From positions 78,058,001-78,122,000 of the forward strand of contig JBNRSN020000021.1 in assembly GCA_051313645.2 (NCBI GenBank): a stretch of 64,000 nt of DNA. Direction: 5' to 3'. The translations under genes were made by a program, and so were the position numbers. Origin of the DNA: Centroscyllium fabricii (Eukaryota). Below the pieces are notes generated by a model. It made no database searches, had not been told where the DNA came from, and saw nothing but the letters and a program-made list of their open reading frames with translations. Position 1 is the stretch's first letter. Every line of letters starts with the position of its first letter. This document shows positions 22,473 through 62,800 of this stretch, piece after piece.

Positions 22473-23372
22473 TAAAATGGGAAATCCATATCTAAATCTA
22501 TAATAAACCAAATGAGTATCAGATAAACACTGGACAAGGGCATTACCAGGATATGGAGCATTTTGCACTGTATCAAGTGTTAACATTGTAGATTTAGCAG
22601 CCTGTGCTTTGCAGTAGGAATACATTGCATATAACCTTTATTTTATAATGTTCTCATTTCTATGCGGCAGTAAATCTTTTGTTATGAATATAAAATGTAT
22701 ATTTATTACCCTAAGACCTACTTATGGAGAAATAACTAGTATTTCTTAGGAAGGATTATATAATTTCAGCACCATAAATTATTTTAATACAGCACAGCCG
22801 CAAAAGGACACATTGACATTTAAATCCGAAATTAAACTCATTGTGTCAAGGAAATCATTCTCAAAGGTTTTGCATCCAGTTGATGTTTATGCAGCATGGG
22901 GTCATAAATGATAACTTAAATATACCGTTATTTATTCATGAACACAGTGCATTTTATTTTTAATTGTAATAAGATTGGGGTACAAATGTATTTGCAGGCT
23001 ATCTCCAATTTCCAGATGGATGACTGTGATTTATTATCCTTAACTGGAAAGTTTTTTTCAACCTTTATCATAATTATTGTTTCTTTCCTTTTTCTGAAAG
23101 AAGTCATGAGAGGCTCACATTAATTATTTAAGCAGACTTGTTGCATCAAGACGCTGTTCAAGACTATCTTCGTTTTGTTTACAGCGAAGCCTACTCTGCA
23201 AATTCCTTGAGAGTCTTTATTTTACTGCTACCATAATCTTGATCCAGTACTTTAATCAGTCTGCACTTTATGCCTTAGAGCAGCAGTGATACCCGCCCTG
23301 CTGTATGCCTCAGAGACATGGACCATGTACAGCAGGCACCTCAAAGCACTGAAGCGGTACCACCTCCGCAAG

Positions 23373-23817
23373 CAGGGCCGGCTCAAGGTATTTGGGGGCC
23401 CCAAACAAGGTATTTTGGGGGCCCCAAACAAGGTATTTTGGGGGCCCCAAACAAGGTATTTGGGGGCCCCAAACAAGGTATTTTGGGGGCCCCAAACAAG
23501 GTATTTGGGGGCCCCAAACAAGGTATTTTGGGGGCCCCAAACAAGGTATTTTGGGGGCCCTTTCTGTTTGTGTCTGTAGATATGTGTGCACAAGCACAAG
23601 GGGGGCTTCTTCTGCCGGCACTAAAACCTACTGTACCCAGTATATAATTATGCACCAGTTATGTACCAGTACATTGTGCACAATATTGTGCAGGGGCAAT
23701 GTATGTCTATCATGGGCTATAATTTAAGAATGAAAACACTTAGGCCTATGAGGGGCCCTCTCAAATCGGGGGCCCTAAACAAATGTTTACATCGTTTATA
23801 TGGTAGGGCCGGCCCTG
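23373..23817. mobile_element. hAT-type MITE
   Basis: TIR CAGGGCCGGC/GCCGGCCCTG. Perfect 8-bp TSD TCCGCAAG. Confidence 0.92.
23384..23560. repeat. 22/23-bp tandem array, 7 full units plus 1 partial, near-palindromic unit
   Basis: CAAGGTATTT(T)GGGGGCCCCAAA repeated with no spacers. Confidence 0.95.
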
Positions 23818-40282: not shown

Positions 40283-41418
40283 AAAAATTCCAGTCACAAT
40301 GTTGGAAGGAAGGGCCCGGGGCAGGGAAGGCGTAAACTTTCCTTATGGGACTTGAAGATGCATTCCTGCTCCCTCCTGACCCCACAGGGAGAGTAAAATA
40401 TATACTATACATATATATAATAAACAGACTTATCTGTTTGGCCCCCTCTGACCCGACTCCTCTTCCTGCTAAATGGACCTGGCAGGAAAGCCACAACCAT
40501 TTCCCTGCTCAGGACCCCAGTTAAAGGAGCAGTGGAGCCCCGATTTCATCATCGGAGGCCAATCGGCAGAACCATTGGATGTCCATCTTGTATGCTCAGA
40601 AGAACAGGTTAAAATCACATCCTGAGGGATCATTGGGGGACATCGGTGGGTGAGTTCCATGGGCGATTTTTAATCGCCTGCCCAACTGGTTTCTGCCAAG
40701 TGGGCAGGATTAAAATTGCCGATACAGACTCTGCTTTTTGTATTGTAGAAAATGTCCAAACAAAAATTTGGTTTAATTTTACGATTTCCCCCAAAGTGTT
40801 CATGATTTTTCAACTGGCCAAGTCAGATACAGTGATCTTTGGTGAAGTCGGAGATTGTCAATATGGAGATGAGAGAACTTTTCCATTCAGAAATAGGGAA
40901 ATCAGTCAGTGTAAAATAAAAGTCAATGCAATGCCTTAAACTAAGCAGACTGCAACACTGGATGTTTATGGCTCCTCTGCAGAGAGGGTATGGATCGATA
41001 ATTATCTTTAGTTTCTTTATGGTAAGTGAAAAACTTTTCAAAAACAAACTAAAATTAAATTGCAGCATGTCGCTGCAATTTCAGAAGGAGGTTGTGTTGT
41101 AGTGGATTATTATTTTGTTGTGACAGTAAGTTATTTATTGCTCCAGCCCAAGGTCACAAGATTGTGACGGGTCTGTTAGCTGAGTTTCTGTCAGTGATTG
41201 GATTCCCATTCTGAGCAACACTTCTTTTGTGAGATAATAGTCAGTCTGCCAAAAATAAACTAAAGGCGCAAAGTGAGCCTGTTGCCGCTGCTGGATGAGA
41301 TGTGCTGCTGTCTTCCCAGCAGTGTACCTGATTTATCCTAGCCCAGAAATTCCTGGCAGTGGGATGGCACGCCTGCCCAATAACTCGCCCCAGCACTGAC
41401 CCTGCTCGAATCCTGGGA

Positions 41419-43174
41419 TGTAAGGAGCGTGCGCCGTATATTTTACTGTACGACTTGGGGTCCGTTACTGCCTTGCGCTAGCAGTCCGCTAGGCCTCGCG
41501 CAATAACCTCCTCCCCCGCGAGCGGTTCGAATCGCTCACTCTTTACGGTTCTAGACGCTGGACTTAGGTGCAGGAAGAGAGAGAGAGAGAGAGAGATGGA
41601 TGCCGATTGGACTCAGACTATTGACTCGAATAAAAGTTTGTAAAGTTGGAAGGTTTTTATTACACCAAGAGATATATTTACAGCAGTAAGGATAAAGGTT
41701 TATTACACCAAGAGATATATTTACAGCAGTTAGGTTGTATTTTCTCGGGTCAACACAGTATGGAACACCAACAATTGTTCCCAAATAGATATATATACAT
41801 ATGCACATACACAAACAACTCATAGGATGGGGAACGCACGACACATCGTAAATCGGGGCAATGACTCTAAAATTACACCCCAAACGAACCACCCTTCCCT
41901 CTATTGCCTAGCTATGTCCAGGTGTGTAGGATCAATGCACATGCTCACCACTCGGTAATACTCGGGTTCTGCTACGAAGTCCCTCGTCTCCTCGGCTGCA
42001 GCGTCGGTCGTCACGTGGCTGTGGAAGATTCGGGAGTCCACTTGTTGTTTTCTCCCTTTGGGCGGCGGTCGCTCCTGCTCGGGCTGGTCCCGGACGGGTT
42101 CCTCGAGGCTGCTCTACCTTCTCACACCAGCCGCACCGTCTCCCTGGCTGAACCGGACCCTGGGGTATGCCGATCCTGCCCTCTCAAGCCGAACTGTAAC
42201 GGGCTGCTAGCCTAATTGTTCTCCCACTCTTCGAATGCAACTGCAACCAGCCTTTTCTAACTCACTCACTTTGAATATTTGCTTCGCTAATGGGCCTCAG
42301 CAACTAAACTACCTCACCGGCAATGGTTTTCCGATGCGATACTGCCCTGACCCAACTCTGCTGTCCTGCCAGAGCCTGCACCCTGCTTGCCCTGCACCCA
42401 GAAAACTGAACTGGAGTCTTCGAGAAAGACAGCCCACCCAAAGTCACTGCTAGACCTCACCGCTTCAAGAGGTCGCCTCCACGAGTCGATAGAGAGAAAT
42501 CCAAGAGCCTTCTCCAAGAGCTCACCGATGAGAAGAGATTTTACAAGAGAGTATTACAAGAGATTCAAACCCCCCTCCTCCAGGGAGTCCGAGATGAAGA
42601 GAGAGAGCGAACTGTGAAATGTGCTGCCAGTTATACCCCAAAGTCGAACTGCCTAATGTCTTTCCCATTAGAGCCTGTATTGTGTGTGGAAAGCGGTTAC
42701 TGCACTCCTTTTGTCTAGCCAAGTCTGCCGGTAATAGTTTGATGGTGGCTCTAACTTCTCAGGTTAGAGCCCCTTTGTTTTCAAGGGTGCTAATCGCTTT
42801 CTGCTGGAAGGGTATACAATTTCTGTAGCTGGCTGAACGGACCAGCTGCTTCGTTTCTGCAGTTGTTTTGGGTGATTATTTAAACTGGGTGCATTTCTTT
42901 GTCGGGCTAATCGGCCTCTAAAAGGCAGGCTATTTTTTTCCAGGTTTAACAGCGCCTTTATGTCTGGTTTCTTCGCGGGCTTTTCGAGTTGGGTTTTTGG
43001 TTTCGGTTTGTACTGTGCCATGTGGTCCGGCGGCCATCTTGGAGGCCCCTTTTCTCTGATCAGGCCGCAGCCTGTCTTGTCTGTCATTGTCCAAATAAAA
43101 TAAAATGTGTATACTCCATCCTTCGTTTCTGGTCTTTGTGAATCCAATTTAACAGGGAATATTGCGACCTTACA
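41419..43174 (-). repeat. 3' LTR (1756 bp)
   Basis: Direct repeat of 49640-51395 with one substitution seen (~42936). Preceded on the minus strand by AACAGGAGGGAC. Confidence 0.96.
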
Positions 43175-44012
43175 GTCCCTCCTGTTGATTAGCATAACCC
43201 TGCTTAGCGAATCAATTAAGAAAGGTTGAGCAAGATTCCCGATTCTCCACACCTCAACTCTCCTGGTTACCTAAATTAACTCTTGCCCCATGACACATGC
43301 GGTTCCCATTCCCTTTAATCAACCTCGCATTGCCTTTACCCTGGGCAATCGTATATTTACACCACCATGTCTTACACCTCCTGGTTCCTTCCACGTCTGC
43401 CAGGCCGATGCCTTCGTCTCCACCTGTTCACATCATTTATTAACTTGAAAGACATCACACAACCATCCGGAACATATAAACACACACATTTCCCTTCACC
43501 AATCCCCCCATTTGTCCCCAAAGTTTGTACAGTGTTCTGGCGGTCTTCTGCAGCCACCACCATCGGCTCGCTGGGATCTTCCTATCCCTCAACGGAAGTG
43601 AGACCTTTTACCGATGATAGCGCCGGTCCTGGGTGCGATGGTCTTGATCCGGGGCACATAAAACCAAGTCTCTCCACAAGCAGATTTCCGACGTGCTGGG
43701 ATGCTCCATTGGGTCCGTTCCCAGCCGTCCGTACTCCCCGGTGTGGCCCCGGCAGGCCAGTCCATCTTTGATGCCCGCACACGTCATCAGAATCCCCGCC
43801 TCTCTGGGTCCTGTAATTAAACAAAGGGGTTGCCGGCCTCCCAAGAGCGCCTGGCTGTGGTGAGATGTGCACGCCTCCTGGACAGATCCCATATTACCTA
43901 AACACTCCCCTTTACCTTTAACAAAATTGAAACTTAATTCGGGCTACTCCCTTGACACTAAAACTTATTTTTTTTTCATTATATACAGTGCCGCCTCTCC
44001 CGGGCGGCCTAC

Positions 44013-47000
44013 CTATCCCCTGTCAGGGTCGTAGTGGGCCGCTCCCCGTGGCGGTGCCTTGCTGACCCTTCCCTTTGGTTCCCCGCAGCCTGTCGCTGCT
44101 TTTAATTCTCCGCAGCCTGGTGCTGCTTGTCGGGGGTGGATAATTATCCTTTTGCGGGGGCTTTTCCTGTTCCTGAGGGCATATGACGGTTCTGGCCAAG
44201 CTTTCCTGGGCTGGGGTATCCTATCTGATCGACGGAGGGTGCCTTTAGGTACTGCCCCCTGGGCCGACGAACTGAGGACCGAGCCAGGTTGTGCTGCAGC
44301 CTGTGACCCCGTCACATCTGCCAGCACCAACCCCTCTCCCTCCAGCTTCGCCTCCCTGGGACCGAGAGCCCCCTGGGTCGACGACCTGAGGACCGGGCCA
44401 GGTCGTGCTACAGCCTGTGACCCCGTCACATCTGTCAGCCTCGACGCTCCCTCCTCTCGCCTCGTCGACGAACTGAAGGCCGGGCCGGATCGTGCTGCAG
44501 CCTGTGACTCCTTCACAGCTGCCAGCACCGACCCTCCCTCCTTCAGCTTCGCTTCCCCGGGACTGGGATCTCTTGCGGCTTCTGACCTCACCTCACCTAT
44601 CTCCTCAGGTGGTGAGTCTCCGCCCGCTATCCCTACCTCGTCGGCATTCGAGTCGAGAACGGAACCCCCGTCCTCCGACCCCTCCTCCTCCCCTGTGATT
44701 GACTCTAGCACTGGGTCGCATAGGTCAATCAGGTCCAACCCTTGGTCGGGTTGGCCACTCGGATCCAACACTTGGTCGTGTTGGTCCGTCGGATCCAACA
44801 CTTGGTCGTGTTGGTCCGGCTCCTCCCCATCTGAATCCCACACAGCACGAGAGACCCTCCTCTCCTCCATCGGGGCCTCTCCTTTCACGCAGGCTACTTT
44901 GCCTGCCTGCGCGACCTGTGGTCCTGCATTTGGCTGGGCGTTCCCACTCACAGGGCTTGCCCCTGTGGTCGACCCCTGCGTGCCCGACTTATACATTTTA
45001 CATTGGTTTATATCCACCCGTTGCCACGTAACCTCTGGCCCGGGGTGCCCTGCTCCTGGACCCTCGTGGGCCAATTGGAGAAATTCCCTCCTGTGCTGCT
45101 GCGGCACAACCCACTGTTCCTCCCTGAACAACATTCCTTCCTTAACGGAGAGGGTCGCCCTATTGTATGGGCCCTCTACCTGCTTGTCCTCACTAATAGC
45201 TTTGAGGACAGCTTTTAAAACGGGATCCTGGTTTTGGACCGTTTTGAGATCCAAAGGCAAGGGAACCCTGGGGAGGTTCCCCTCCTTGTCCCGGATCGCT
45301 GCCACAGGTCCGGACCCGTAGGGGTCCCAGAAAGTGCCTTCACGAGCACCCTCCTTGGCCAGCGCATCCGCCCGCTGATTGCCTCCCCCACGTGGTTCCG
45401 TGGAAGAGTGAGCCTTCACCTTGTGGATGAAGATCTCCCCTTCTTCCCCTACTGCTGCTAGGATCTTCTCCAACAAGGGCTTTACCGTTAATGGCCGCCC
45501 GTCCGCGGAAGCGTACCCGCGACGTGACCATATGGCCAGATACTCCGTGCACGAGTTGCACGTAAACATACTATCGGAGCAAATTGTGTACGGGGTTGGG
45601 AAGGTCTCGGGGTGGGTTACCACGTACGCCACCGCCGACAGCTCGGCCTGCTGCGCGCTCATGGTGCGGGGAAGCTTAACCGCCAAGGCAATGTCTGCCG
45701 TAGGGTCAAAAATCCCGCAGCCCGTGAGTCGTTCGCCAGCCACCACCGTGCTGGAACCATCAACATAGATCTCGCGGCCCGTGGGATGTATCCCGGCTCG
45801 CAGACCTATGTTCACCTCCCATACCCCCTCCACGGAACACCGATGGGCCGTTCCGGGGTACATCAAATTTGCTGCGAGCTTAGGCTCGCACAAACCCTCC
45901 ACTTTTAAATCCATTTGGGACAACAGAAGAGTCCAGCGCGCAATTCTCGCGCTGCTCACGGTCCCATCCTTTATCCTCCCATCCAGAAGCATCCTGGTGG
46001 GCGTGTGGTGGGTGAGGAGAGTAATGGGAGAGGTTCCCGTGAAGATTAATGATCTCTTCACGGCCCAATGCGTGGCTAAGAGATGCCGTTCGCAGTTGGA
46101 GAACCCCCTCTCTACCTCCGTGAGTACCCTTGAGGAATACACCACCGGTCGCAGCTTGCCGTGCCGCTCTTGGAGCAGCACCGCGCTCAAGCTGTCCTCG
46201 CCGGCTGCTACCTCCAGGGAAAACTCCTTCCCCCCCTCTATGGCCCCCAGGGCTGGCGCGGTTTGCAAATCCCTCTTTAACTTCTCAAACGCCGCCTGGC
46301 AGCCCTCATCCCATGACCACCCAACTCCTTTATGTAAGAGTCGGAGCAGCGGAGCTGCTGTGGCTGCATAGTCCTCAATGAAGTCTCTGCAATAGCCGGT
46401 CAATCCCAAAAAGGACCTCACACCCTTTACGGTGGTCGGGATCGGTAGCTCCTGTACCGACTCCCTTCTGGCCTTATCTATGGCCCTTTCCCCCGCGCGG
46501 ATGGTCAGACCCAGAAACTTTACTTCTGTCTGGCCAATCCGTGCCTTCTTCGGGTTTATTTTAAAACCCTTCCTAGCCAGTAATTCCAGCAGCTCGCCTA
46601 GCAATGGCAAGTGCTCATCCCTCGTGTCCGTAAACAGGAGTAAGTCGTCCACATACTGCACTATCTGACTGGGCTGACTAAACTCCTTTAAACTCCCTGC
46701 CATGCACTGGTGGAAAATACTGGGGCTGTTGTGGAAGCCTTGCGGCAAACAATTCCACGTGTACTGCTGCCCTTTAAACGTAAAGGCAAACTTGTACTGA
46801 TCCTCCCTCCGCAGCGGGATGGACCAAAACCCGTTGGAAATATCCAACACCGTAAACACCGTGGCGGAAGCGGGAATACTCCCGATCAGGTCGGCAACTG
46901 CTGCCACCGTGGGTGCGCAGGCAGGGATGTTACTGTTGAGGACCCGATAATCCACCGTGGCTCTCCATGAGTTGTCTGGCTTCCGTACGGGCCACAACGG

Positions 47001-47720
47001 AGAGTTCACATGGGTGGCTATCGGCCTCAACACGCCCTGCCGCACCAGTGAAGACATCGCTGTCTCCAGATCGGACTCCGCTTCCTTGGGGAAGTTATAC
47101 TGTTTCTGGGGCCGGGACATGGGATCCCCCTGTACGCTAACCTCAAACCCTAAGACCCTCCCGCAATCGTGCTTGTGGGTCGCAAAGGCGTTTATATTCC
47201 ACGTTACGGCCGCCTGCATGTCGGCCGGAACCCCTTTGGACAAACTATCGAGGTCGTAACCTCCGGACGGCTTCATGGTGCATAGGGTCCCCTTTTCTTC
47301 TTCCTCCCCTATGACCACAACTTCACCTCTTCCACTTTCGGCTGCCCATAAACAGTGGTTCCTTAGGTCGATCATGATCCCGTGTGCTCCCAGAAAATCT
47401 GCTCCTACTATACCTCTGCCACCTCCCTCTTCCCATTTCAGTAGGATGCACTCCCAAGTGGTGTGGAGCGCTCCTAACTGAATGGAGAGTGGCCTAGAGC
47501 GCGCGCCCCCCTGTTCCTTGCCCGTAAACCCTGCTAATGCAAAAGGGACTCTGGTGGACATTGGGGAATTAAACGGCTTCTCTGTATGGATCACGGTGCA
47601 TGAGGCCCCCGTATCCAACAGATAATTCCCCTCCTGTCTCTCCACCTCCATTTCCACCAGAGGTCTCCTCCATGCATCATAGCGGAGCGGACACAGGTAA
47701 ATGGGCAGCGCGGGTCTTAG
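44013..47720 (-). CDS. pol: Pol (PR-RT-tether-RNase H-truncated IN plus acidic tail), in frame with gag after a single TGA
   Basis: YLLDTGAS; LPQGFHNSP; QYVDDLL; degenerate RH (LEVAAG in place of DAS); IYVDGS...QQAEL...CSDS...HKVKAH...NQRADALAK; AHEGPGAGHPG. No DDE core follows. Confidence 0.9.
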   Translation of the reverse strand, partial: LRPALPIYLCPLRYDAWRRPLVEMEVERQEGNYLLDTGASCTVIHTEKPFNSPMSTRVPFALAGFTGKEQGGARSRPLSIQLGALHTTWECILLKWEEGGGRGIVGADFLGAHGIMIDLRNHCLWAAESGRGEVVVIGEEEEKGTLCTMKPSGGYDLDSLSKGVPADMQAAVTWNINAFATHKHDCGRVLGFEVSVQGDPMSRPQKQYNFPKEAESDLETAMSSLVRQGVLRPIATHVNSPLWPVRKPDNSWRATVDYRVLNSNIPACAPTVAAVADLIGSIPASATVFTVLDISNGFWSIPLRREDQYKFAFTFKGQQYTWNCLPQGFHNSPSIFHQCMAGSLKEFSQPSQIVQYVDDLLLFTDTRDEHLPLLGELLELLARKGFKINPKKARIGQTEVKFLGLTIRAGERAIDKARRESVQELPIPTTVKGVRSFLGLTGYCRDFIEDYAATAAPLLRLLHKGVGWSWDEGCQAAFEKLKRDLQTAPALGAIEGGKEFSLEVAAGEDSLSAVLLQERHGKLRPVVYSSRVLTEVERGFSNCERHLLATHWAVKRSLIFTGTSPITLLTHHTPTRMLLDGRIKDGTVSSARIARWTLLLSQMDLKVEGLCEPKLAANLMYPGTAHRCSVEGVWEVNIGLRAGIHPTGREIYVDGSSTVVAGERLTGCGIFDPTADIALAVKLPRTMSAQQAELSAVAYVVTHPETFPTPYTICSDSMFTCNSCTEYLAIWSRRGYASADGRPLTVKPLLEKILAAVGEEGEIFIHKVKAHSSTEPRGGGNQRADALAKEGAREGTFWDPYGSGPVAAIRDKEGNLPRVPLPLDLKTVQNQDPVLKAVLKAISEDKQVEGPYNRATLSVKEGMLFREEQWVVPQQHRREFLQLAHEGPGAGHPGPEVTWQRVDINQCKMYKSGTQGSTTGASPVSGNAQPNAGPQVAQAGKVACVKGEAPMEERRVSRAVWDSDGEEPDQHDQVLDPTDQHDQVLDPSGQPDQGLDLIDLCDPVLESITGEEEGSEDGGSVLDSNADEVGIAGGDSPPEEIGEVRSEAARDPSPGEAKLKEGGSVLAAVKESQAAARSGPAFSSSTRREEGASRLTDVTGSQAVARPGPVLRSSTQGALGPREAKLEGEGLVLADVTGSQAAAQPGSVLSSSAQGAVPKGTLRRSDRIPQPRKAWPEPSYALRNRKSPRKRIIIHPRQAAPGCGELKAATGCGEPKGRVSKAPPRGAAHYDPDRG

Positions 47721-49637
47721 TCATTGGGTTTCCACGTGAGGGGCTGCGGTGCCTGCGGAACCGGTGGCCACCGCTGCCTTCCCCTGGGAAGCCATATACA
47801 ACTTCATGGCCCCCAGCGTGGACTCAATCGTCTCGGGACTTAAGGTCGCCCCGGCACCTCCTGTGGGAGCGGGTGCTCGGGTTGGGGCTACCTTCCCCTG
47901 GGAAGTCATATAAAACTTCATGGCTTCCAGCATGGACTCAATTGTTTCGGGACTTAGAGTGGCGCCGGCACCTCCTGTGGGAGTGGGTGCTGGGGCTGCG
48001 GGAGCTCTTTCCTTGACCTCCCTCCACGGGGCTCTACAGTCTCTGCGCCAGTGGCCTGCCTTCCCGCATCTATGACATGTAGACTGCTCCGGGTTGCCCC
48101 CCTCCTGATACCACTCTCTCTGCGCTGGGGCGTTTGCGTTAGTCGCATACACCTTCCCCTTTTCGCAGTGCATCACCGAACTCCTTGTATTTTTATACCC
48201 AACCGTGAGTCGGTTGAGGACCGTCTCCTCTGTGGTTAGAGCATCGGTGGGGTCAAACCACACCTTCGCCTGCTCTCTAACGGCGGGTAGGCTGTTGGCA
48301 ACGATACACCGGAGCCACTGGGCTCTCCCGGCATCGCGCAAAACAGCCCGTGCAGGTACATCTGGGCAGCTGCGCTGATACACAGGCCACAGCCTCCCGG
48401 CGAAAACCCGTGGGGGTTCTCCCTCCATCTGCACGGTCCTACCCAGCCTTACAAACGGACCTTCATCGTCCATCCCTAATATTTCTAGGACCTCGTCCCG
48501 CAGGTCGTTATAACAATTCTCCCCCCTTTTGCTCTCGTCGGAGAGACACTGAAGGATAGAGCTATCCAACGAGAAAAGCAACATCCTGGCTTGCTCCCCT
48601 TCGTCACAGCCGTTAATTGCTGCGGCCTGTTCGACCTCCCTAAAATGCAGGGACGGATCGCCTGCTGCGGACAGCTTCCTGAAATGCCCTATCATGCTCC
48701 TTATCTGTTGCGAGCTATGGGGCACTATAACCTCATTCAGGATGGGCCCGGGATCCCCAGCCGCAGTGTCGGGACCCCGCCTCGTCTCTCGAACCGGACA
48801 CATGGGTGCCGGGTCTGGATTCCCCACTTTGGGAACCTTTGCCGCCACCTCCTCTCTGTCCCCTTTCTCCCATGCTTGCGTATAGTGGGGTGATCGTGCG
48901 GGGAGCGCGGGGGCTGGTGCCTCCGGCGCCCTCCTCCTTAACTTTGGCTTCGGGGGTTCCTGAGCTACCTTTACCTCACCCACCGATGGGTCGATGAGGC
49001 ACACCAGACCATTTGACTTGTTCAGGGCCTCCCTGAGGTCCTGAATCTCCTTTAAACAGGCGCTATGATCGGCGTCCTCATATTTGGCCTCGAGGGACAT
49101 TTTGTAAGCTGCCCTCATCCCCAGTAAATCCTCCTCCTGTGCCTTCAATTGGCCACTTAGGCGGACGCACCTTTCCCTGAGCTTCCCTTCACTTGACATG
49201 GCCTCTACGACTTGTCTCTCTAGGAGCTCAACCCTAGCTTCATGGCGGTTGGTCTTCACCTGGCGCTCATTATTTAGAGCCTCTAGCGCGGTGATTAACC
49301 GCTGCCCCCCTGAGACCTTTTCCTCCACTTCTAGGACCAACCCTTTTATCTGCGCGGTCTGCGCCGCAATCACCTGGTCCGAAAGCTGGACCTGTCTTTT
49401 ATAACACATAAGCCATACGGCTTTCTCTACGGCCTTTTTATGCCCCTTGCTACCCGTCCAACGGATAGCTGCATCCAGTGGGCGTTTGTCTGCCAACAGG
49501 TCCCCAATCCACTGCTTTGTTAAATTAACTTTGCTGAATACATAATCAGCAATCCTTTCCTCCATTACGCTTCTTTTATTCAAAGCTGAGTCCAATAGAT
49601 CTCTCTCCTGCTGCCAGCGTCCTGCCGCGGTCGCCAT
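47721..49637 (-). CDS. gag: Gag, 638 aa
   Basis: Intact ORF with coiled-coil-like N-terminal half, Pro-rich linker, CHRCGKAGHWRRDC zinc knuckle and a duplicated ~39-aa C-terminal segment. Confidence 0.9.
   Translation of the reverse strand: MATAAGRWQQERDLLDSALNKRSVMEERIADYVFSKVNLTKQWIGDLLADKRPLDAAIRWTGSKGHKKAVEKAVWLMCYKRQVQLSDQVIAAQTAQIKGLVLEVEEKVSGGQRLITALEALNNERQVKTNRHEARVELLERQVVEAMSSEGKLRERCVRLSGQLKAQEEDLLGMRAAYKMSLEAKYEDADHSACLKEIQDLREALNKSNGLVCLIDPSVGEVKVAQEPPKPKLRRRAPEAPAPALPARSPHYTQAWEKGDREEVAAKVPKVGNPDPAPMCPVRETRRGPDTAAGDPGPILNEVIVPHSSQQIRSMIGHFRKLSAAGDPSLHFREVEQAAAINGCDEGEQARMLLFSLDSSILQCLSDESKRGENCYNDLRDEVLEILGMDDEGPFVRLGRTVQMEGEPPRVFAGRLWPVYQRSCPDVPARAVLRDAGRAQWLRCIVANSLPAVREQAKVWFDPTDALTTEETVLNRLTVGYKNTRSSVMHCEKGKVYATNANAPAQREWYQEGGNPEQSTCHRCGKAGHWRRDCRAPWREVKERAPAAPAPTPTGGAGATLSPETIESMLEAMKFYMTSQGKVAPTRAPAPTGGAGATLSPETIESTLGAMKLYMASQGKAAVATGSAGTAAPHVETQ
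49619..49636 (-). promoter_or_regulatory. Primer-binding site for tRNA-Arg(TCG)
   Basis: TGGCGACCGCGGCAGGAC is complementary to GTCCTGCCGCGGTCG-CCA, which I recall as the 3' 18 nt of vertebrate tRNA-Arg(TCG). Confidence 0.85.
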
Positions 49638-49639
49638 TC

Positions 49640-51395
49640 TGTAAGGAGCGTGCGCCGTATATTTTACTGTACGACTTGGGGTCCGTTACTGCCTTGCGCT
49701 AGCAGTCCGCTAGGCCTCGCGCAATAACCTCCTCCCCCGCGAGCGGTTCGAATCGCTCACTCTTTACGGTTCTAGACGCTGGACTTAGGTGCAGGAAGAG
49801 AGAGAGAGAGAGAGAGATGGATGCCGATTGGACTCAGACTATTGACTCGAATAAAAGTTTGTAAAGTTGGAAGGTTTTTATTACACCAAGAGATATATTT
49901 ACAGCAGTAAGGATAAAGGTTTATTACACCAAGAGATATATTTACAGCAGTTAGGTTGTATTTTCTCGGGTCAACACAGTATGGAACACCAACAATTGTT
50001 CCCAAATAGATATATATACATATGCACATACACAAACAACTCATAGGATGGGGAACGCACGACACATCGTAAATCGGGGCAATGACTCTAAAATTACACC
50101 CCAAACGAACCACCCTTCCCTCTATTGCCTAGCTATGTCCAGGTGTGTAGGATCAATGCACATGCTCACCACTCGGTAATACTCGGGTTCTGCTACGAAG
50201 TCCCTCGTCTCCTCGGCTGCAGCGTCGGTCGTCACGTGGCTGTGGAAGATTCGGGAGTCCACTTGTTGTTTTCTCCCTTTGGGCGGCGGTCGCTCCTGCT
50301 CGGGCTGGTCCCGGACGGGTTCCTCGAGGCTGCTCTACCTTCTCACACCAGCCGCACCGTCTCCCTGGCTGAACCGGACCCTGGGGTATGCCGATCCTGC
50401 CCTCTCAAGCCGAACTGTAACGGGCTGCTAGCCTAATTGTTCTCCCACTCTTCGAATGCAACTGCAACCAGCCTTTTCTAACTCACTCACTTTGAATATT
50501 TGCTTCGCTAATGGGCCTCAGCAACTAAACTACCTCACCGGCAATGGTTTTCCGATGCGATACTGCCCTGACCCAACTCTGCTGTCCTGCCAGAGCCTGC
50601 ACCCTGCTTGCCCTGCACCCAGAAAACTGAACTGGAGTCTTCGAGAAAGACAGCCCACCCAAAGTCACTGCTAGACCTCACCGCTTCAAGAGGTCGCCTC
50701 CACGAGTCGATAGAGAGAAATCCAAGAGCCTTCTCCAAGAGCTCACCGATGAGAAGAGATTTTACAAGAGAGTATTACAAGAGATTCAAACCCCCCTCCT
50801 CCAGGGAGTCCGAGATGAAGAGAGAGAGCGAACTGTGAAATGTGCTGCCAGTTATACCCCAAAGTCGAACTGCCTAATGTCTTTCCCATTAGAGCCTGTA
50901 TTGTGTGTGGAAAGCGGTTACTGCACTCCTTTTGTCTAGCCAAGTCTGCCGGTAATAGTTTGATGGTGGCTCTAACTTCTCAGGTTAGAGCCCCTTTGTT
51001 TTCAAGGGTGCTAATCGCTTTCTGCTGGAAGGGTATACAATTTCTGTAGCTGGCTGAACGGACCAGCTGCTTCGTTTCTGCAGTTGTTTTGGGTGATTAT
51101 TTAAACTGGGTGCATTTCTTTGTCGGGCTAATCGGCCTCTAAAAGGCAGGCTATTTATTTCCAGGTTTAACAGCGCCTTTATGTCTGGTTTCTTCGCGGG
51201 CTTTTCGAGTTGGGTTTTTGGTTTCGGTTTGTACTGTGCCATGTGGTCCGGCGGCCATCTTGGAGGCCCCTTTTCTCTGATCAGGCCGCAGCCTGTCTTG
51301 TCTGTCATTGTCCAAATAAAATAAAATGTGTATACTCCATCCTTCGTTTCTGGTCTTTGTGAATCCAATTTAACAGGGAATATTGCGACCTTACA
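49640..51395 (-). repeat. 5' LTR (1756 bp)
   Basis: Followed after 3 nt by the PBS. Minus-strand AATAAA about 240 and 280 nt from its 3' end. Confidence 0.96.
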
Positions 51396-51712
51396 GGGAT
51401 TAGCAATCCTATACTGGCTGAGTAGCCGCCTCCAATCAGGGATACGAGGGAGTGCTGCATTGTTGGAGGTGACGTATCGTCAAGGTCTTCAATTAAAAGA
51501 GTCGACGCGTAGTTACCGAAATTAAAGGCTTTTAATTACTAAAGAACGGAGCTACTCTCCAGACGAACTACTGTACAGGAATGGATGGAGCCTCGGTCAG
51601 ACCACACCTATATCGGGGCCTCACCTGGGGGAGGAGTCGGCGGTGTGGCTGACCTGGCTCCCAACAGAGTCACAGTAAACAGGGCTGTGCCTAACATCTG
51701 CACAGCCCATCA

Positions 51713-54700
51713 TTAGCCATGGTGATACAGTGGTATAACTGATATAGAACGGTTACCACATTCACCCCTTCTTAAAAACTTTGAGTCCGGGGGGGGTGAA
51801 TGGATCGAACAGTTCATAATTAGTCTGTCCAGCGGTCGTGTCTGCCTGGAGGACCGCCGGCGCTCCGGTGTTGGCGGCGGTGCCTCCTGGGTCAAATGGT
51901 CCGCATCCGCCGGCGCTGTGACTTCAGGTGGCGGCGGGCTCGGCTGGTCCCCGCCGTCCGGGTCGTAGTCGGGGAAACTCGGGGGCCATCGTGCGATTGG
52001 TGGTTGGTCGGCCTGCTGGCCAGCAGGAGGCGCTGCAGTGGTGTTTCCGGCCAGGGCCAGGTCCCTGATGGACATGGTGTCCTCACGCCCGTCCGGGAAC
52101 TGCACGAAGGCGTAGTGCGGGTTTGCGTGTAGGAGCTGTACCATGTCCACCAGGGGGTCCGTCTTGTGGTTCCGGACATGCCTTTTAAGCAAAACCGGCC
52201 CCGGAGTCGTCAGCCATGGAGGAAGAGCTGTCCCCGAAGTCGACCTCCTGTTAAAAGAAAAAATCAGATCGTGCGGGGTGGCGTTAGTGGCAGTACACAA
52301 CAGTGAGCGAATAGATTGCAGCGCGTCTGGGAGGACTGCCTGCCAATGGGACACTGGAAGGCCTCTGGACTTGAGGGCCAGGGTGACCGCCTTCCAGATG
52401 ATCCCATTCTCCCTTTCTACCTGGCCGTTCCCCCGGGGGTTATAACTGGTCATTCTGCTCGTGGCAACCCCTCTCTGGAGCAGAAACTGGCGCAGTTCAT
52501 CGCTCATGAACGATGACCCCCGGTCGCTATGGATGTAGCTGGGGAGACCGAAAATGGCGAACAGCGCGGTGAAGTGTTTGATCACCGTTGCGCTCGTCAT
52601 GTCTGGGCAGGGGAAGGCGAATGGGAAGCGTGAAAACTCATCCACTACCGTGAGGAAGTATGAGTTGCGGTCGGTGGAAGGGAGGGGGCCTTTGAAGTCC
52701 ACGCTGAGACGTTCAAAGGGGCGGGTGGCCTTAATGAGGTGCGCCGTGTCTGGCCGGAAAAAGTGGGGTTTGCACTCGGCGCAGACAGGGCACTCTCGGG
52801 TCATAGCCTTGATCTCCGTAATGGAGTAGGGGAGGCTACGAGATTTGATGAAATGGGCGAGTCTGGTGACACCCAGGTGGCAAAGGCGGTCGTGGAGGTC
52901 CTTCAGCCGGTTTAGCTGGGCACTGGCGCACGGTTCCCTGGACAGTGCGTCTGGGGGTTCGTTGAGTTTGCCTGGTCGGTAAAGAATGTCGTACTCGTAA
53001 GTCGAGAGTTCGATCCGCCACCGCAGGATCTTATCATTCTTGATTTTACCCCGTAGTTTATTATTAAACATAAACGCTACCGACCGTTGGTCGGTGAGCA
53101 GGGTAAAACGCTTACCAGCCAGGTAATGACGCCAGTAGCGCACGGCCTCCACGATGGCCTGGGCCTCCTTTTCCACTGCTGAGTGGCGAGTTTCGGGTCC
53201 CTGTAAGGTGCGGGAGAAAAACGCTACGGGCCTGCCTGCCTGATTCAGGGTGGCAGCAAGGGCGAAGTCCGAAGCGTCACTCTCCACCTGGAAAGGGATG
53301 GATTCATCAACAGCGAGCATGGTCGCCTTGATGATATCTTCCTTTATCCCTGCGAATGCCGTTTGGGCTTCTACAGAAAGGGGGAAGACGGCAGCCTTGA
53401 GGAGTGGTCTAGCCTTATCTGCGAACTGTGGGACCCATTGTTCATAATAGGAGAAAAATCCTAGACATCTCCTCAAGGCTTTGGGGTTGTGAGGTAGGGG
53501 CAGTTCTTGCAGGGGTCGCATACGCTGTGGGTCGGGGCCGTGGAGCCCGTTCTCCACCACGTATCCGAGGATGGCGAGCCGGGCTGTATTAAAGACACAT
53601 TTGTCTTTGTTATACGTGAGATCCAGCTTAGCCGCCATGGCGAGAAATTTTGCTAGATTGGCATCGTGTTCCTGCTGGTCGTGGCCGCAGATGGTCACGT
53701 TGTCCAGGTAAGGGAAGGTGTCCTGCAAGTCGTTTTGGTCAACCATACGGTCCATCTCCCGTTGGAACACTGACACTCCGTTGGTCACGCCAAAGGGGAC
53801 CCGGAGGAAGTGGTAGAGCCGACCGTTCGCCTCGAAGGCGGCGTAGGGGCGGTCAGCTTTCCGAATCGGGAGCTGATGATACGCCGATTTAAGGTCGATC
53901 GTAGAGAACACCTTGTACTGGGCGATCTGATTGACCATTTCTGAGATGCGGGGAAGGGGGTAGGCGTCGAGCCCGGTGTAGCGGTTGATAGTCTGGCTGT
54001 AATCGATAACCAGCCGCTGTTTTTCGCCAGACTTCACCACTACAACTTGGGCGCACCAGGGGCTGGTGCTGGCTTCAATTATCCCCTCCTTCAGCATCCG
54101 CCCGACCTCTGACCTGATAAACGTGCGATCCCCCTCACTGTACCGCCGACTCTTAGTGGCAATGGGTTTGCACTTCGGATCGAGGTTGGCGAACAGCGAG
54201 GGGGGGTCAATTTTCAGGGTGGAGAGGCCGCAGGCCGGGCTCCGCTTTGGGAGGAGATTGTCCCGGCTACTGACGGTGAGGGGGGGTAAGGTCCCGCCGA
54301 ACTCCATTGTCACACTCCTGAAGTGGCACTGGAAATCCAAACCGAGTAAGGCTGGGGCACACAACTGTTGGAGGGTATACAATTTAAAATTACGGTACAC
54401 GCGTCCCTTGGTGGTGAGCGTGACGGAGCAGTAGCCGGTGACGTCCGCGGTGTGGGACTGTGAAGCTAGGGAGACTTGGTAGTTGGTGGGCAGGACCTGC
54501 AGTCCACAGCGCCGCACTGTATCAGGGTGAATGAAACTCTCAGTGCTGCCTGTGTCGAAAAGGCAGTCGACAGTATGCTCATTAATGCTAATCGGTATTA
54601 TTGAGTTAGACAGGGTATGGGGCCTGCCCTGGCTAACTCTGATTCTAGCTGCCGCAGCCCCTGCTGATCGGGGCTGTGCACAAGATGGCGTCGCCCCTGG

Positions 54701-55906
54701 CTCGCCCATGGAGGGGCCCTGGATACAAGATGGCGTCGCCCCTGGCCCGCCGCTGGTGGGGCCCCATATACAAGATGGCGTCGCCCCTGGCTCGCACATG
54801 GAGGGGCCCTGGATACAAGATGGCGTCGCCCCTGGCCCGCAGCTGGTGGGGCCCCGTATACAAGATGGCGCTGCCCCTGGCTCGCACATGGAGGGGCTCT
54901 GGTTGCAAAATGGCGTTTCTGAGGGGACGCACGCGGTGGGGCCCTGTGAACGCGCTGGCGGCGCCCGTGATTCGCACGCAGCGAACCGCGGTGATCGGGT
55001 TGGCGGTGCTCGTGATTCGCATGCAGCGGGCCGCGGTGGTCGGGTTGGCGGTGCCCGTGATTCGCACGCAGCCGGCCGCGTTGGGGGGTCGCGCTTGGCC
55101 GGCCTTTGCTGTATCAGGGTGGGAGATGGGGGCGCTTGTTGTTTACCCCCGTACCGTCGCTGGATCGCGCTGCTATTGCAGCTTACCTGGTGTCTGTCGG
55201 TGCTCTCACAGGCTGCATTGTTGTACCTTGAGTTGGGCGCTGCTGGAGCTGATCTGCAGGCTTTAGCGTAGTGTCCCTTCTTTGCACACTTCTCGCAGGT
55301 CGCTGTCCTGGCTGGGCATTTCGCTCTAGGGTGCAGTCCCTGGCTGCAGAAGTAACAGCGCTTGCTTTTAACGTCTTTAATGTCTTTAGTGGCCGTCGCG
55401 GCCATCGTGGGGGCCTCGGCCCATGGCGCCCAGGCCTGGGCCTGTTGTGGCGCGGCCCATATGTTGTAGGCTTGCGGGTTAGTGCCGCTGTACGCCTGTA
55501 ACTTGCTACGGGCCCCCTCTACCGATTTAGCTAACGTAGTCGCCTCCTTGAGGGTTAAATTGTCTCTCTCTAGTAGCCGCTGGCGGGCTTCCACACACCT
55601 CAGTCCTGTGACATAAGCGTCCCGAACGAGGAGTTCTTCCTCCTCTGCAACAGTTGTGCCTTTGCAGCCACAGGCCTGTACCAGGGCCAGGAGCGCTTGC
55701 TCAAACTCCTCATTTGACTCACCCGGTAGCTGAGTTCTGGTCGCCAGCACATGTCGGGCGTAGACCGAATGGACCGGGCGCACGTAACATTTCTTCAGGA
55801 TTAGTATAGTCCTTTCGTAGGTTGTGGCGTTCCTGACGAGCGTGAATACCCTGCTGGAGATCCTTGATCGCAGTCCAAAGATGTGCGGGTTAGGTTGATT
55901 GGCCAT
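51713..55906 (-). CDS. Gag-Pol polyprotein ORF of Gypsy C (1397 aa; native ATG at 56263 separated by HE1)
   Basis: CCHC knuckles, LFDTGS, YLDN, ESDAS, HHCC, VDFKG, HSDRG, QVERE, all in one open frame. Confidence 0.85.
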   Translation of the reverse strand: MANQPNPHIFGLRSRISSRVFTLVRNATTYERTILILKKCYVRPVHSVYARHVLATRTQLPGESNEEFEQALLALVQACGCKGTTVAEEEELLVRDAYVTGLRCVEARQRLLERDNLTLKEATTLAKSVEGARSKLQAYSGTNPQAYNIWAAPQQAQAWAPWAEAPTMAATATKDIKDVKSKRCYFCSQGLHPRAKCPARTATCEKCAKKGHYAKACRSAPAAPNSRYNNAACESTDRHQVSCNSSAIQRRYGGKQQAPPSPTLIQQRPAKRDPPTRPAACESRAPPTRPPRPAACESRAPPTRSPRFAACESRAPPARSQGPTACVPSETPFCNQSPSMCEPGAAPSCIRGPTSCGPGATPSCIQGPSMCEPGATPSCIWGPTSGGPGATPSCIQGPSMGEPGATPSCAQPRSAGAAAARIRVSQGRPHTLSNSIIPISINEHTVDCLFDTGSTESFIHPDTVRRCGLQVLPTNYQVSLASQSHTADVTGYCSVTLTTKGRVYRNFKLYTLQQLCAPALLGLDFQCHFRSVTMEFGGTLPPLTVSSRDNLLPKRSPACGLSTLKIDPPSLFANLDPKCKPIATKSRRYSEGDRTFIRSEVGRMLKEGIIEASTSPWCAQVVVVKSGEKQRLVIDYSQTINRYTGLDAYPLPRISEMVNQIAQYKVFSTIDLKSAYHQLPIRKADRPYAAFEANGRLYHFLRVPFGVTNGVSVFQREMDRMVDQNDLQDTFPYLDNVTICGHDQQEHDANLAKFLAMAAKLDLTYNKDKCVFNTARLAILGYVVENGLHGPDPQRMRPLQELPLPHNPKALRRCLGFFSYYEQWVPQFADKARPLLKAAVFPLSVEAQTAFAGIKEDIIKATMLAVDESIPFQVESDASDFALAATLNQAGRPVAFFSRTLQGPETRHSAVEKEAQAIVEAVRYWRHYLAGKRFTLLTDQRSVAFMFNNKLRGKIKNDKILRWRIELSTYEYDILYRPGKLNEPPDALSREPCASAQLNRLKDLHDRLCHLGVTRLAHFIKSRSLPYSITEIKAMTRECPVCAECKPHFFRPDTAHLIKATRPFERLSVDFKGPLPSTDRNSYFLTVVDEFSRFPFAFPCPDMTSATVIKHFTALFAIFGLPSYIHSDRGSSFMSDELRQFLLQRGVATSRMTSYNPRGNGQVERENGIIWKAVTLALKSRGLPVSHWQAVLPDALQSIRSLLCTATNATPHDLIFSFNRRSTSGTALPPWLTTPGPVLLKRHVRNHKTDPLVDMVQLLHANPHYAFVQFPDGREDTMSIRDLALAGNTTAAPPAGQQADQPPIARWPPSFPDYDPDGGDQPSPPPPEVTAPADADHLTQEAPPPTPERRRSSRQTRPLDRLIMNCSIHSPPPDSKFLRRGECGNRSISVIPLYHHG

Positions 55907-56117
55907 GATAAATTGACCCTTAGTGTTAGGGGGTTTGAATATGTGGGGTTACGGGGATAGGGTGGGATTTGTGTCGATGGAGGCTCGATAGGGGATATGG
56001 GGAGAGGGCAGAGGCGGTGTGCTGGGTTTGGATGATCAGCCATGATCTCATTGAATGGCGGAGCAGGCTCGAAGGGCCGAATGGCCTACTCCTGCTCCTA
56101 GTTTCTATGTTTCTATG
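55871..56117 (+). mobile_element. 5'-truncated HE1-like SINE inside gag of Gypsy C
   Basis: Starts CAGTCCAAAGATGTGCGGGTTAGG, ends (TTTCTATG)2. Confidence 0.9.
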
Positions 56118-59895: not shown

Positions 59896-62800
59896 TGTGA
59901 CACGATTACTGGGACATGCCCAGGTTGGCTCCGCCCACAACTCCTCCCTCCCAGGAGGGGGTATATAAGTGGCAGCCTCCCATCCCCCGGCTATACCTGG
60001 GGACAGTCGACTAGCTGGTGTATGTCCCACCTTTTAGTTAATAAAAGCCGCATTGTTTCTCTTCCTAACTACTCGTCCACGAGGTCGTTATTTCGGTCAC
60101 AATTTTATTAACTAAATTTTGAAGATGGACGCCATGCTCAAGCCAGCGACGTTTGAACTGGACCCCCGAACACCAGGTGCATCAAACACCTTTACACACT
60201 GGTACAGTGTCTTTGATGCGTACCTAAGAGCGAACGCAGCGGTCGTAGTGACCGAAGAGGACAAACGACGGCTCCTCAACGCCCGGGTGGGCCCTCAGGT
60301 GTACTCCATGATCGTGGATGCATCATCCTACTTGGATGCCATCAGGATCCTCAAGGCGGAGTACAACTGGGCACCCAATATCGTCCACGCCAGACATATC
60401 CTAGCCACCAGGAAGCAGCAACCCGGTGAGTCCAGTGTGGAATTTTTAAGAGCGCTGAGAGTGCTTTCACGGGCCTGTGACTGCAGAGCGCTAACGGCCC
60501 CGGTCCATGCAGACAGCCTCATCAGAGATGCGTATGTGACAGGCCTCAGGTCGGACTATGTAAGACAGAGGCTGTTAGAGCAGAACGGCCTTGACCTGCA
60601 GGCAACCGCGGATCTGGGAAATGCGCTGGACGTGGCCTCGCTAAATCTCTCGTCCTACTCCAGCAACTATATGGGCCCAGCCCCGTCATCTTGGACAACG
60701 CCGGCGCAACGGCCGGCAGAAGAAATGATCGCAGCCGCTCACGCGAAGACGGCTAAATGCTACTTCTGTGGGCAGTCTCAGCACCCGAGCCGTAACTGCC
60801 CGGCAAGAGAAGCGGCCTGCTCGAAATGTGGAAAAAAGGGACATTACGCCAAAGTTTGTAAGACGACCACATCAACCACAAAACCGAAACCGGGCAGCGC
60901 CGCGTGTGGAACATGGGAGCAGCCATATTGGACTCAACCATCCCCCACTCAGCTCCCCGCGTGGCAGCAGCAGTTGCCATATTGGACCCAGCCACCCCCT
61001 CCGCAGTACACCGCATGGAGGCAGCCATCTTGGGGATCAGCACCGGAGGACTACTCTTCGGATCAAGAAGAATCGGCTGACCCAATATTGGCATCGGTGA
61101 CTCTCGACCAGAACAGGGCCCAATCGCTCGGGAATTCGATGATGCCTGTAGAAGTGAATGGACAAGAAGTGGTGTGCCTTTTCGACAGTGGGAGCACGGT
61201 GAGTTTTATTAATCCCGAGACAGTAGAGCGCCTCTCCCTTAAGGTTATACCTGCGAGCCAAAGAATTTCGATGGCTTCTAAATCAGAATCTGCGGACGTC
61301 TCCGGGCGTTGCGCAGTTGCACTAACGGTACAGGGCGCGCTCTTTGATAATTTTAGTTTTTTCGTGCTGCCGCAGCTCTGCGCCCCATTACTTTTGGGCC
61401 TGGACTTCCAGTGCCACCTCCAGAGTGTTACCATGGCGTTCGGTGGGCCCCTTCCCTCGCTCACGGTCAGAAACCGGCGCTCAGCGCAGCACCCCCGGCA
61501 CGCTACCTGTGGCCTCTCGACCCTTAAGGTCGCCCCTCCCTCACTCTTCGCTAACCTCACCCCAGACTGCAAGCCCGTCGCCACCAAGAGTAGGCGCTAC
61601 AGTGCTGGGAACATGGACTTTATTAAGTCCGAGGTGCAGCGCCTCCTGAAAGAGGGGGTCATCGAGGCCAGTAATAGCCCCTGGAGGGCGCAGGTAGTGC
61701 TGGTCAAAACCGGAGCGAAGAACCGGATGGTCGTTGACTACAGTCAGACCATAAACCGGTTCACACAGTTAGACGCTTACCCCCTTCCCCGGATAGCGGA
61801 CATGGTGAACCAGATCGCACAGTTCAGGGTGTTCTCCACCATCGATCTCAAGTCCGCTTATCACCAGCTTCCCATTCGCCCAGAGGACCGTCTCTATGCA
61901 GCCTTCGAGGCTGACGGTCGCCTCTATCACTTCCTTAGGGTCCCGTTTGGCGTCACGAATGGGGTCTCGGTATTCCAAAGGGAGATGGACCGAATGGTCG
62001 ATCGGTACGGGCTGCGAGCCACTTTCCCGTACCTCGATAACGTGACCATCTGCGGCCACGACCAGCAGGACCATGACGCCAACCTCCAGAAATTTCTCCA
62101 CACCGCCAAAACACTTAATTTGACTTATAACACCGAAAAGTGCGTGTTTAGTACCACCCGCCTGGCCATCCTTGGCAGTGTTGTGGAGAATGGGGTCATC
62201 AGTCCCGACCCGGACCGCATGCGCCCCCTCATGGAGCTCCCCCTCCCCCACTCCCCCAAGGCCCTTAAACGGTGCTTGGGGTTCTTTGCGTATTACGCCC
62301 AGTGGGTCCCCAATTACGCGGACAAAGCTCGCCCACTGCTCAAATCTACCTCTTTTCCCCTGTCCGCAGAAGCCAGCTTGGCGTTCTGCGGCATTAAGAA
62401 CGACATCGCAAAAGCCACGATGCACGCTATGGACGAGTCCGTCCTGTTCCAGGTTGAGAGCGATGCATCGGACTTTGCCCTGGCCGCCACCCTTAACCAG
62501 GCGGGCAGACCCGTGGCCTCCTTCTCACGTACCCTCCAGGGCCCCAAGACCCGTCACTCCTCAGTCGAGAAGGAGGCCCAGGCCATCGTTGAAGCAGTGC
62601 GTCACTGGAAGCACTACCTGGCTGGCAATCGTTTTACTCTGTTGACTGACCAACGATCAGTCGCTTTTATGTTCAACAACAAAGAGCGGGGTAAAATCAA
62701 GAACGACAAGATATTGAGGTGGAGAATTGAACTCTCCGCGTTTAATTATGATATCTTGTACCGGCCCGGGAAATTTAACGAACCCCCAGACGCCCTATCC

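Follow-up and report, generated by a model that had tools for sequence, protein, structure and literature searches.

A young, integrase-deleted copy of an env-less endogenous retrovirus subfamily in Centroscyllium fabricii, with env-bearing sisters in the same genome

The stretch analysed here (the window) comprises 64,000 nucleotides of the Centroscyllium fabricii genome (assembly GCA_051313645.2, contig JBNRSN020000021.1, positions 78,058,001 to 78,122,000), and a retrovirus-like element occupies its minus strand at positions 41419-51395. It is very probably a young, integrase-deleted member of a subfamily without env, belonging to a canonical endogenous retrovirus (ERV), likely of the grade named after the snakehead retrovirus (SnRV), that lost env once it was in the germline. 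The element has two long terminal repeats (LTRs), a target-site duplication (TSD), a primer-binding site (PBS), gag and a pol with reverse transcriptase (RT) and two RNase H domains, and its features are the following.

41419-51395, minus strand: the whole element
49640-51395, minus strand: 5' LTR, 1,756 bp
41419-43174, minus strand: 3' LTR, 1,756 bp
41415-41418: left TSD, GGGA
51396-51399: right TSD, GGGA
49619-49636, minus strand: PBS, 14 of 18 bases complementary to the 3' end of the genome's tRNA-Arg(TCG)
47724-49637, minus strand: gag, 638 codons counted from the first Met (open frame 47724-49685)
48033-48080, minus strand: single CCHC knuckle (zf-CCHC) in gag
47721-47723, minus strand: gag/pol junction, one in-frame TGA followed by CTA
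44016-47720, minus strand: pol open frame, 1,235 codons
47388-47672, minus strand: aspartic protease, LLDTGA
46500-46988, minus strand: RT core with LPQG and YVDD (RVT_1, E 4e-35)
45915-46313, minus strand: tether, a degenerate first RNase H (pol residues 470-602, Gypsy-type RNase H-like)
45345-45773, minus strand: second RNase H, intact (RNase_H at residues 650-792, E 7e-19, motifs complete)
45013-45107, minus strand: first half only of the integrase zinc finger, which stops at a 933-bp in-frame deletion junction
44016-45012, minus strand: acidic repetitive pol tail, common to all sisters examined
43175-44012, minus strand: post-pol region with a decayed env relic
43175-43186, minus strand: polypurine tract
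15467-17228, minus strand: solo LTR belonging to the element's family, at 93-96% identity with its LTRs, and with its own 4-bp TSD, GCTG

The near-identical 1.76-kb LTRs, the 4-bp TSD, the CCHC Gag and the YVDD of RT that a first-pass annotation of this stretch had described were all recovered; the LTRs, with termini TG...CA, differ at one position (42936 T against 51157 A). Two of the four mismatches in the PBS permit G-U pairs and the site overlaps the first gag ATG at 49637, while the PBS of an env-bearing sister matches tRNA-Arg(TCG) at 18 of 18 bases. The N-terminus of Gag is likely a coiled coil, judging from a weak likeness to SnRV Gag (E 0.002), and the TGA between gag and pol is identical in all ten sisters compared (10/10). 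A dead RNase H followed by an intact one had been proposed, and the catalytic positions bear this out: those of the tether read LEVAAG, ERHLL and LTHHTP, against VESDAS, EKEAQ and LTDQRS in the adjoining Gypsy element, whose acidic catalytic residues the tether lacks. Among solved structures the tether is closest to the connection regions of MLV and XMRV (E 4e-8), with Ty3 much weaker (E 0.16), and the second RNase H is closest to gammaretroviral RNase H and human RNase H1 (E 1e-7), in keeping with the retroviral type assigned to it before.

Two things had escaped the first-pass annotation, namely the env relic and the loss of the integrase catalytic core from the pol frame. The 933 bp missing from pol in the window are carried by 11 of the 11 other loci matched by an RNase H probe, and they encode the remainder of the zinc finger and the integrase catalytic core. 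Ten sisters from the env-less subfamily of the window (subfamily A) were fetched whole; pol is open across 1,520-1,546 codons in nine of them, and an env-sized frame was found in none of the ten. The exact deletion junction recurs at 701 genomic places, which indicates that the deletion predates integration of the window copy, and integrase-deleted copies of this kind were likely integrated in trans; it weighs against this reading that part of the 701 matches lie in tandem arrays. Arrays of integrase-deleted copies, with repeat lengths near 6.0 and 8.3 kb, were seen at C113:94240984-94271202 and C1:238514673-238539494. A marker for intact integrase gave at least 2,157 copies of subfamily A, a lower bound since the marker was found in just six of ten known intact copies.

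Besides A, three subfamilies were distinguished: B, which carries an in-frame truncated frame with an immunoglobulin-like (Ig-like) region and a transmembrane segment (TM), and C and D, both of which carry a full env, placed between pol and the 3' LTR as in canonical retroviruses. Copies were counted with exact-match markers, and all counts are hence lower bounds; reversed control markers gave 0 matches, and each marker matched its own subfamily alone among 20 fetched copies. The junction marker of A was found in at least 9,581 copies, that of B in at least 295 and the env core marker (C and D) in at least 1,031, A outnumbering the env-bearing copies about ninefold. Sister copies with intact integrase or env, for which the first-pass annotation had suggested a search, are therefore present genome-wide.

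The longer post-pol region was revealed by an older copy interrupted by an inserted sister. A probe taken from that region matched 20 loci, in 14 of which a 320-codon frame is open (subfamily B), laid out as a signal-like N-terminus, an Ig-like region, a stalk and a TM. Database relatives of the B frame (from Rhinoraja longicauda, at 68-70%, and from unnamed sources) continue into a furin site and a heptad region, and when a stretch of skate Env was used as a probe in the genome, all 150 scored matches lay at 87-88%, 149 of them stop-free in the probed stretch, with frames of up to 863 codons (C and D). The nearest named Env relatives come from skate and sawshark (64-88% identity), which makes the chondrichthyan lineage suggested earlier probable. 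Since B equals the Env of C minus residues 243-705, in frame, the idea that its frame is a stand-alone Ig accessory gene was rejected; it turns out to be an internally deleted env. Nested insertions occur at C822:71160937-71188126, where an A copy sits in the RNase H of an older B copy, which also contains a Gypsy fragment and a further family LTR.

In the window itself there is no env-sized open reading frame (ORF) in the 841 bp preceding the 3' LTR, as had been noticed, but the region is not simply devoid of env: positions 43530-43757 match Env residues 50-125 (tblastn, E 7e-7), with frameshifts and deletions, and tblastn recovered part of the relic in every one of 19 additional A loci. Compared across 2.2 kb of RT-RNase H, the window copy has an identity of 88% with B, 86% with C and 81-82% with D. 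A rapid DNA tree of 19 copies, with D taken as the outgroup, unites A, B and C (support 100), which argues that env is ancestral. With env-bearing sisters in the same genome and a relic in A, the env-less state is read, on this sequence evidence, as a late loss from an enveloped ancestor.

The dN/dS of pol between subfamilies is 0.07. Across the 14 open copies of the B frame there are 34 synonymous and 77 non-synonymous variants (pN/pS 0.69), which gives no clear sign of present constraint on that frame, and its dN/dS of 0.17 against C is not datable to after the deletion. Two env-bearing D copies lack nearly all of pol and have LTRs 98.9-99.9% identical, being non-autonomous carriers of env.

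The nearest Pol protein is an unnamed relative at 87%, after which come unnamed and frog 'NYNRIN-like' proteins at 44-47% and then a gap; identity to SnRV Pol is 36%. A wider Pol search gave 150 proteins, and RT was usable in 183 sequences. The largest tree, of 99 rows, took in all 68 rows that had either a second RNase H or a high-scoring RT, plus 31 of 115 Gypsy-like rows, and later trees held 53 rows (RT), 28 rows (RT) and 27 chosen rows (RT and tether). The reference rows sampled were SnRV, epsilon- and gamma-like rows and one ERV-L-like row; the labels 'epsilon', 'gamma' and 'ERV-L-like' are ones we presume to be right, apart from three rows labelled by Pfam. The SnRV row (P0068) and a row near Loki-Lro (P0097) were identified by matching letters in the supplement of PMC7947760.

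The RT of the window lies on the canonical-retrovirus side, with supports of 99/99 (53 rows), 98/98 (28 rows) and 100/97 (RT and tether, 27 rows), and the Loki RT rows form a clade of their own (100/98, 53-row tree). When the window and Loki were forced together, the approximately unbiased (AU) test rejected the grouping on RT and tether (p=0.010). The second RNase H and the integrase of the family also fall outside the Loki clades (100/97 and 100/99), and the SRWP/MSGWP and PFGY-N motifs common to the Loki RT rows do not occur in the window RT. The element is likewise outside Gypsy/Metaviridae: its RT is not in the Gypsy clades, and it has a tether and an active second RNase H. The RT and RNase H phylogeny that the first-pass annotation had called for was in this way run with Loki, Gypsy and canonical rows, and its outcome does not support the lineage at the boundary of retrotransposons and retroviruses, comparable to Odin and the lokiretroviruses, that had been supposed; it puts the RT inside the canonical retroviruses. 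Viral and metagenome contigs contained no relative of the window element or of the frog Pol.

Three points weigh against so simple a placement. First, the trees contain no foamy, Odin, alpha-, beta- or lentivirus rows; second, the AU test on RT alone is borderline (p=0.047); third, SnRV and the window share a basal polytomy with turtle rows and one Xenopus row, and no tree joins the element with SnRV. The frog, Xenopus and coelacanth relatives were also considered as lokiretroviruses, their hosts being fitting, and this was ruled out by the RT alignment of PMC7947760.

The third point leaves some room for the possibility, which we rate as real and yet not as the expected outcome, that the element belongs to an unnamed basal canonical clade (frog, Xenopus and coelacanth 'NYNRIN-like') distinct from SnRV proper, the traits shared with SnRV being ancestral. 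A clade of 12 rows that leaves SnRV out (91/94, 53-row tree), the higher pol identity to the frog and unnamed elements than to SnRV and the extra inserts in SnRV Pol and Env are in its favour; however, the clade has 84/97 in a smaller tree and dissolves once the tether is added, and the published 'SnRV-like' group is already broad, with coelacanth, amphibian and elephant-shark ERVs. Such a clade would alter the name of the element, not the mechanism. It is improbable that we are dealing with the first lokiretrovirus of a cartilaginous fish, secondarily env-less like zebrafish BHIKHARI, even though the dual RNase H, the F-like Env of the sisters, the coiled-coil Gag and the 'NYNRIN-like' relatives would all be compatible, and even though none of the 6 chondrichthyan genomes surveyed yielded Loki, which leaves a gap for such an element: the Loki RT motifs are missing from the window, the separate clade contains, as its anchor, a Labeo rohita protein that is almost the same as Loki-Lro, and the AU test on RT and tether largely refutes the grouping. 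That the element stands, like Odin, between Gypsy and retroviruses and never had env, for which dual RNase H without an env ORF would be the right architecture, can be given hardly any credence, because the relic is homologous to the env that sisters carry in full and A is nested among env-bearing subfamilies, which together refute it unless both are artefacts, because the RT falls, relative to the Loki branch, on the canonical side, and because the Loki-type ISRWP and PFGYVNSP of Odin RT are, by eye, absent here (a comparison made beside trees without Odin rows).

A reduced canonical retrovirus is therefore the reading we prefer, and its anatomy, the series of copies, the tree position outside the lokiretroviruses and the env relic are established. 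The nature of the lost envelope is a different matter, and the F-type core and the Ig-like domain in the sister Env are predictions of moderate strength. The Env of C has 783 residues, with RQRR at 327, TM at 734 and nine N-glycan sites, and the predicted order in a full Env is signal peptide, Ig-like domain, furin site, paramyxovirus-F-like core and TM. No CX6CC motif was found in the C Env, the B frame or the SnRV Env. In the Atlas, Fusion_gly F0 ranks first for the core (score 0.94, 208 of 256 features, the score being uncalibrated for protein parts), and the ten best family matches all fall within one clan. The core can be aligned collinearly with that of SnRV Env (20% identity over 427 columns), and in a shuffle test the C and D cores gave z of 4.8 and 5.5 (1 and 0 of 300 shuffles). 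For the N-terminal domain, the pattern C..W..DxGxYxC suggests an Ig fold.

Several results speak against these predictions. Pfam PF00523 is weak in one of four copies (E 0.073) and gives no match in the other three, two D copies included, nor in SnRV Env; BLASTP to SnRV Env reaches only E 0.75 and hhalign 1.5%, and a structure model of the Env ectodomain failed (pLDDT 30). The Ig call comes from sub-threshold matches (Ig_3 at E 0.03 and 0.003, JAM-A at E 0.003), and the Ig model is a beta-sandwich of middling pLDDT (58), with a best Z of 6.5 (VIA), below the confidence level. Env had 0 matches among solved structures at E 5, Foldseek with the Ig model returned nothing at E 0.001, its list being filled by antibody V domains, and a search with PF00523 across the genome gave 0 matches, with controls failing too, and is hence uninformative. 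The N-terminal part of Env against the SnRV N-terminus gave z 0.3, and the Ig stretch scored weakly against the first Ig-like stretch of SnRV (z 2.3) and the tail of the frog gene model P0003 (z 2.6). The last part of that gene model (residues 1195-1291) looks like a signal stretch together with an Ig region (Ig_3, E 0.012), a hint that env with an Ig domain may exist in the frog relatives too.

Of the viruses that bear a name, SnRV is the nearest to the element; its Pol is encoded on a viral contig of 10,688 bases (L100). The window family resembles SnRV in a PBS that starts with TGGCGA at most 3 bases past an LTR end of TTACA, in gag and pol in frame across one stop, in a single CCHC and a coiled-coil-like Gag N-terminus, in a tether followed by RNase H, and in an Env (of the sisters) without CX6CC and with a collinear core. 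It differs in that the stop is TAG in SnRV and TGA here, the signal peptide lies within the env frame in the sisters, SnRV has the longer Env (a frame of 1,134 codons) and, in Pol, an insert ahead of integrase, and the window copy has LTRs of 1.76 kb and lacks env and the integrase core. Hart et al. are said to have described, in 1996, an arginine tRNA primer site in SnRV; the window family has an arginine site as well, presumably for a different Arg isoacceptor. The insert of SnRV Pol (L100:2194-6390) lies between RNase H and integrase, does not occur in the window family and has two H-x-T/S motifs, which may resemble those of 2H phosphoesterases.

ERV-L, IAP and MusD are env-less ERVs that spread as retrotransposons, and the window family is like them in env loss with higher copy number and in non-autonomous deleted sub-lineages. 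In contrast to such env-less ERVs, env-bearing, half-deleted and env-less young subfamilies coexist here in one genome, and the Env lost is predicted to be F-type. That copy number rises once env is lost has been published (bioRxiv 2021.11.23.469661), and SnRV-like ERVs have been published from elephant shark (including CmiERV lineage I, PMC4422223), coelacanth, zebrafish and amphibians, a broad grade; both the spread after env loss and SnRV-like ERVs of cartilaginous fish are thus known already. Lokiretroviruses (PMC7947760) and BHIKHARI (bioRxiv 2024.03.25.586437) share with the window family and its sisters the tether and RNase H, an F-like Env (predicted in the sisters), the coiled-coil Gag region and fish and amphibian hosts, but their RT, RNase H and integrase clades are separate and their RT signatures are missing here. 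Odin retrotransposons (PMC9040795) are alike in having gag-pol only and dual RNase H, and unlike in their RT signatures; in the window family the loss of env is visible and the host is a vertebrate. An F-like fusion core occurs in the Env of lokiretroviruses (PMC7947760) and of foamy viruses (PMC11468914), in the latter with the receptor-binding domain inserted inside the core, unlike here; foamy Gag has no Cys-His box and foamy pol is a separate frame with its own start (PMC8278194), whereas the window element has a CCHC and gag-pol in frame. The predicted Ig-fold domain at the Env N-terminus has a counterpart in gamma-type Env, on which, not on F-type Env, IgV-type receptor-binding domains are described (bioRxiv 2024.03.17.585361). 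No account of an Env of F-type, or of one with an Ig domain, for SnRV or related viruses was found in the literature reachable without subscription, Repbase or bioRxiv supplements, and a literature query joining ERV4 and snakehead gave no papers.

Taken together, an enveloped ancestor with an Ig-like domain and an F-type fusion core would have infected a cartilaginous fish, env being kept in C and D, lost once by in-frame deletion, leaving the signal-Ig-stalk-TM frame of B, and lost once by decay to the relic of A. Judging from sequence, A could make Gag from the LTR transcript and Gag-Pol through readthrough of the TGA (stop readthrough between gag and pol has been proposed for XtERV-S), would prime on tRNA-Arg, and likely spreads within cells like a retrotransposon, copying itself inside germ cells until it outnumbered env-bearing copies by about nine to one. 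The integrase-less sub-lineage of the window would have been integrated by the enzyme of intact sisters. As a broader and tentative proposal, in which we place limited confidence, the basal canonical clade that includes SnRV might have an F-type fusion protein with a host-like N-terminal Ig domain, which, with foamy viruses and Loki, would make the F-type the original Env of retroviruses; its loss might have been staged, and the open but fusion-dead Ig-TM protein of B might act as a receptor decoy or immune modulator.

The single difference in 1,756 bp, which agrees with the very recent activity claimed at first, corresponds to about 0.1 million years at a mammalian rate or about 1.3 million years at a shark rate (rates as assumed in PMC4422223), with wide error. 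In one public sequencing run a contig crosses from the left flank into the LTR, and a contig from a second run agrees, apart from 6 letters, up to 41419 and then continues for 94 letters that diverge from the LTR. Because 41419 is where an empty allele would stop matching, we infer that the insertion is polymorphic. Of the ten A sisters fetched whole, eight have an LTR pair, 99.3-99.9% alike, and a clear 4-bp TSD is seen in five of those eight. Between copies, A-family LTRs are 90-98% identical, with many indels and lengths of 1.46-1.82 kb, and pol is about 99% identical; within each copy the two LTRs remain 99.3-99.9% alike despite that divergence.

Elsewhere in the window, a Gypsy-type open frame of 1,411 codons with a single RNase H and 291-bp LTRs 99% alike lies at 51716-55948, another of at least 1,295 codons at 60116-64000, and a tandem array of at least 7 copies of a 22-23-bp unit at 23361-23583.

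The placement of the element as a reduced canonical retrovirus removes a false 'missing link'. What the genome offers is a natural series of full env, truncated env, relic and integrase-less passenger, all of them young and countable, which suits the study of how a virus that loses env becomes a transposon of high copy number. Should the Env prediction be true, F-type fusogens would reach a third retroviral lineage, and this would bear on the nature of the first retroviral envelope. For the shark itself, subfamily A, at about 9,600 copies, is a sizeable recent contributor to a genome of 7.2 Gb.

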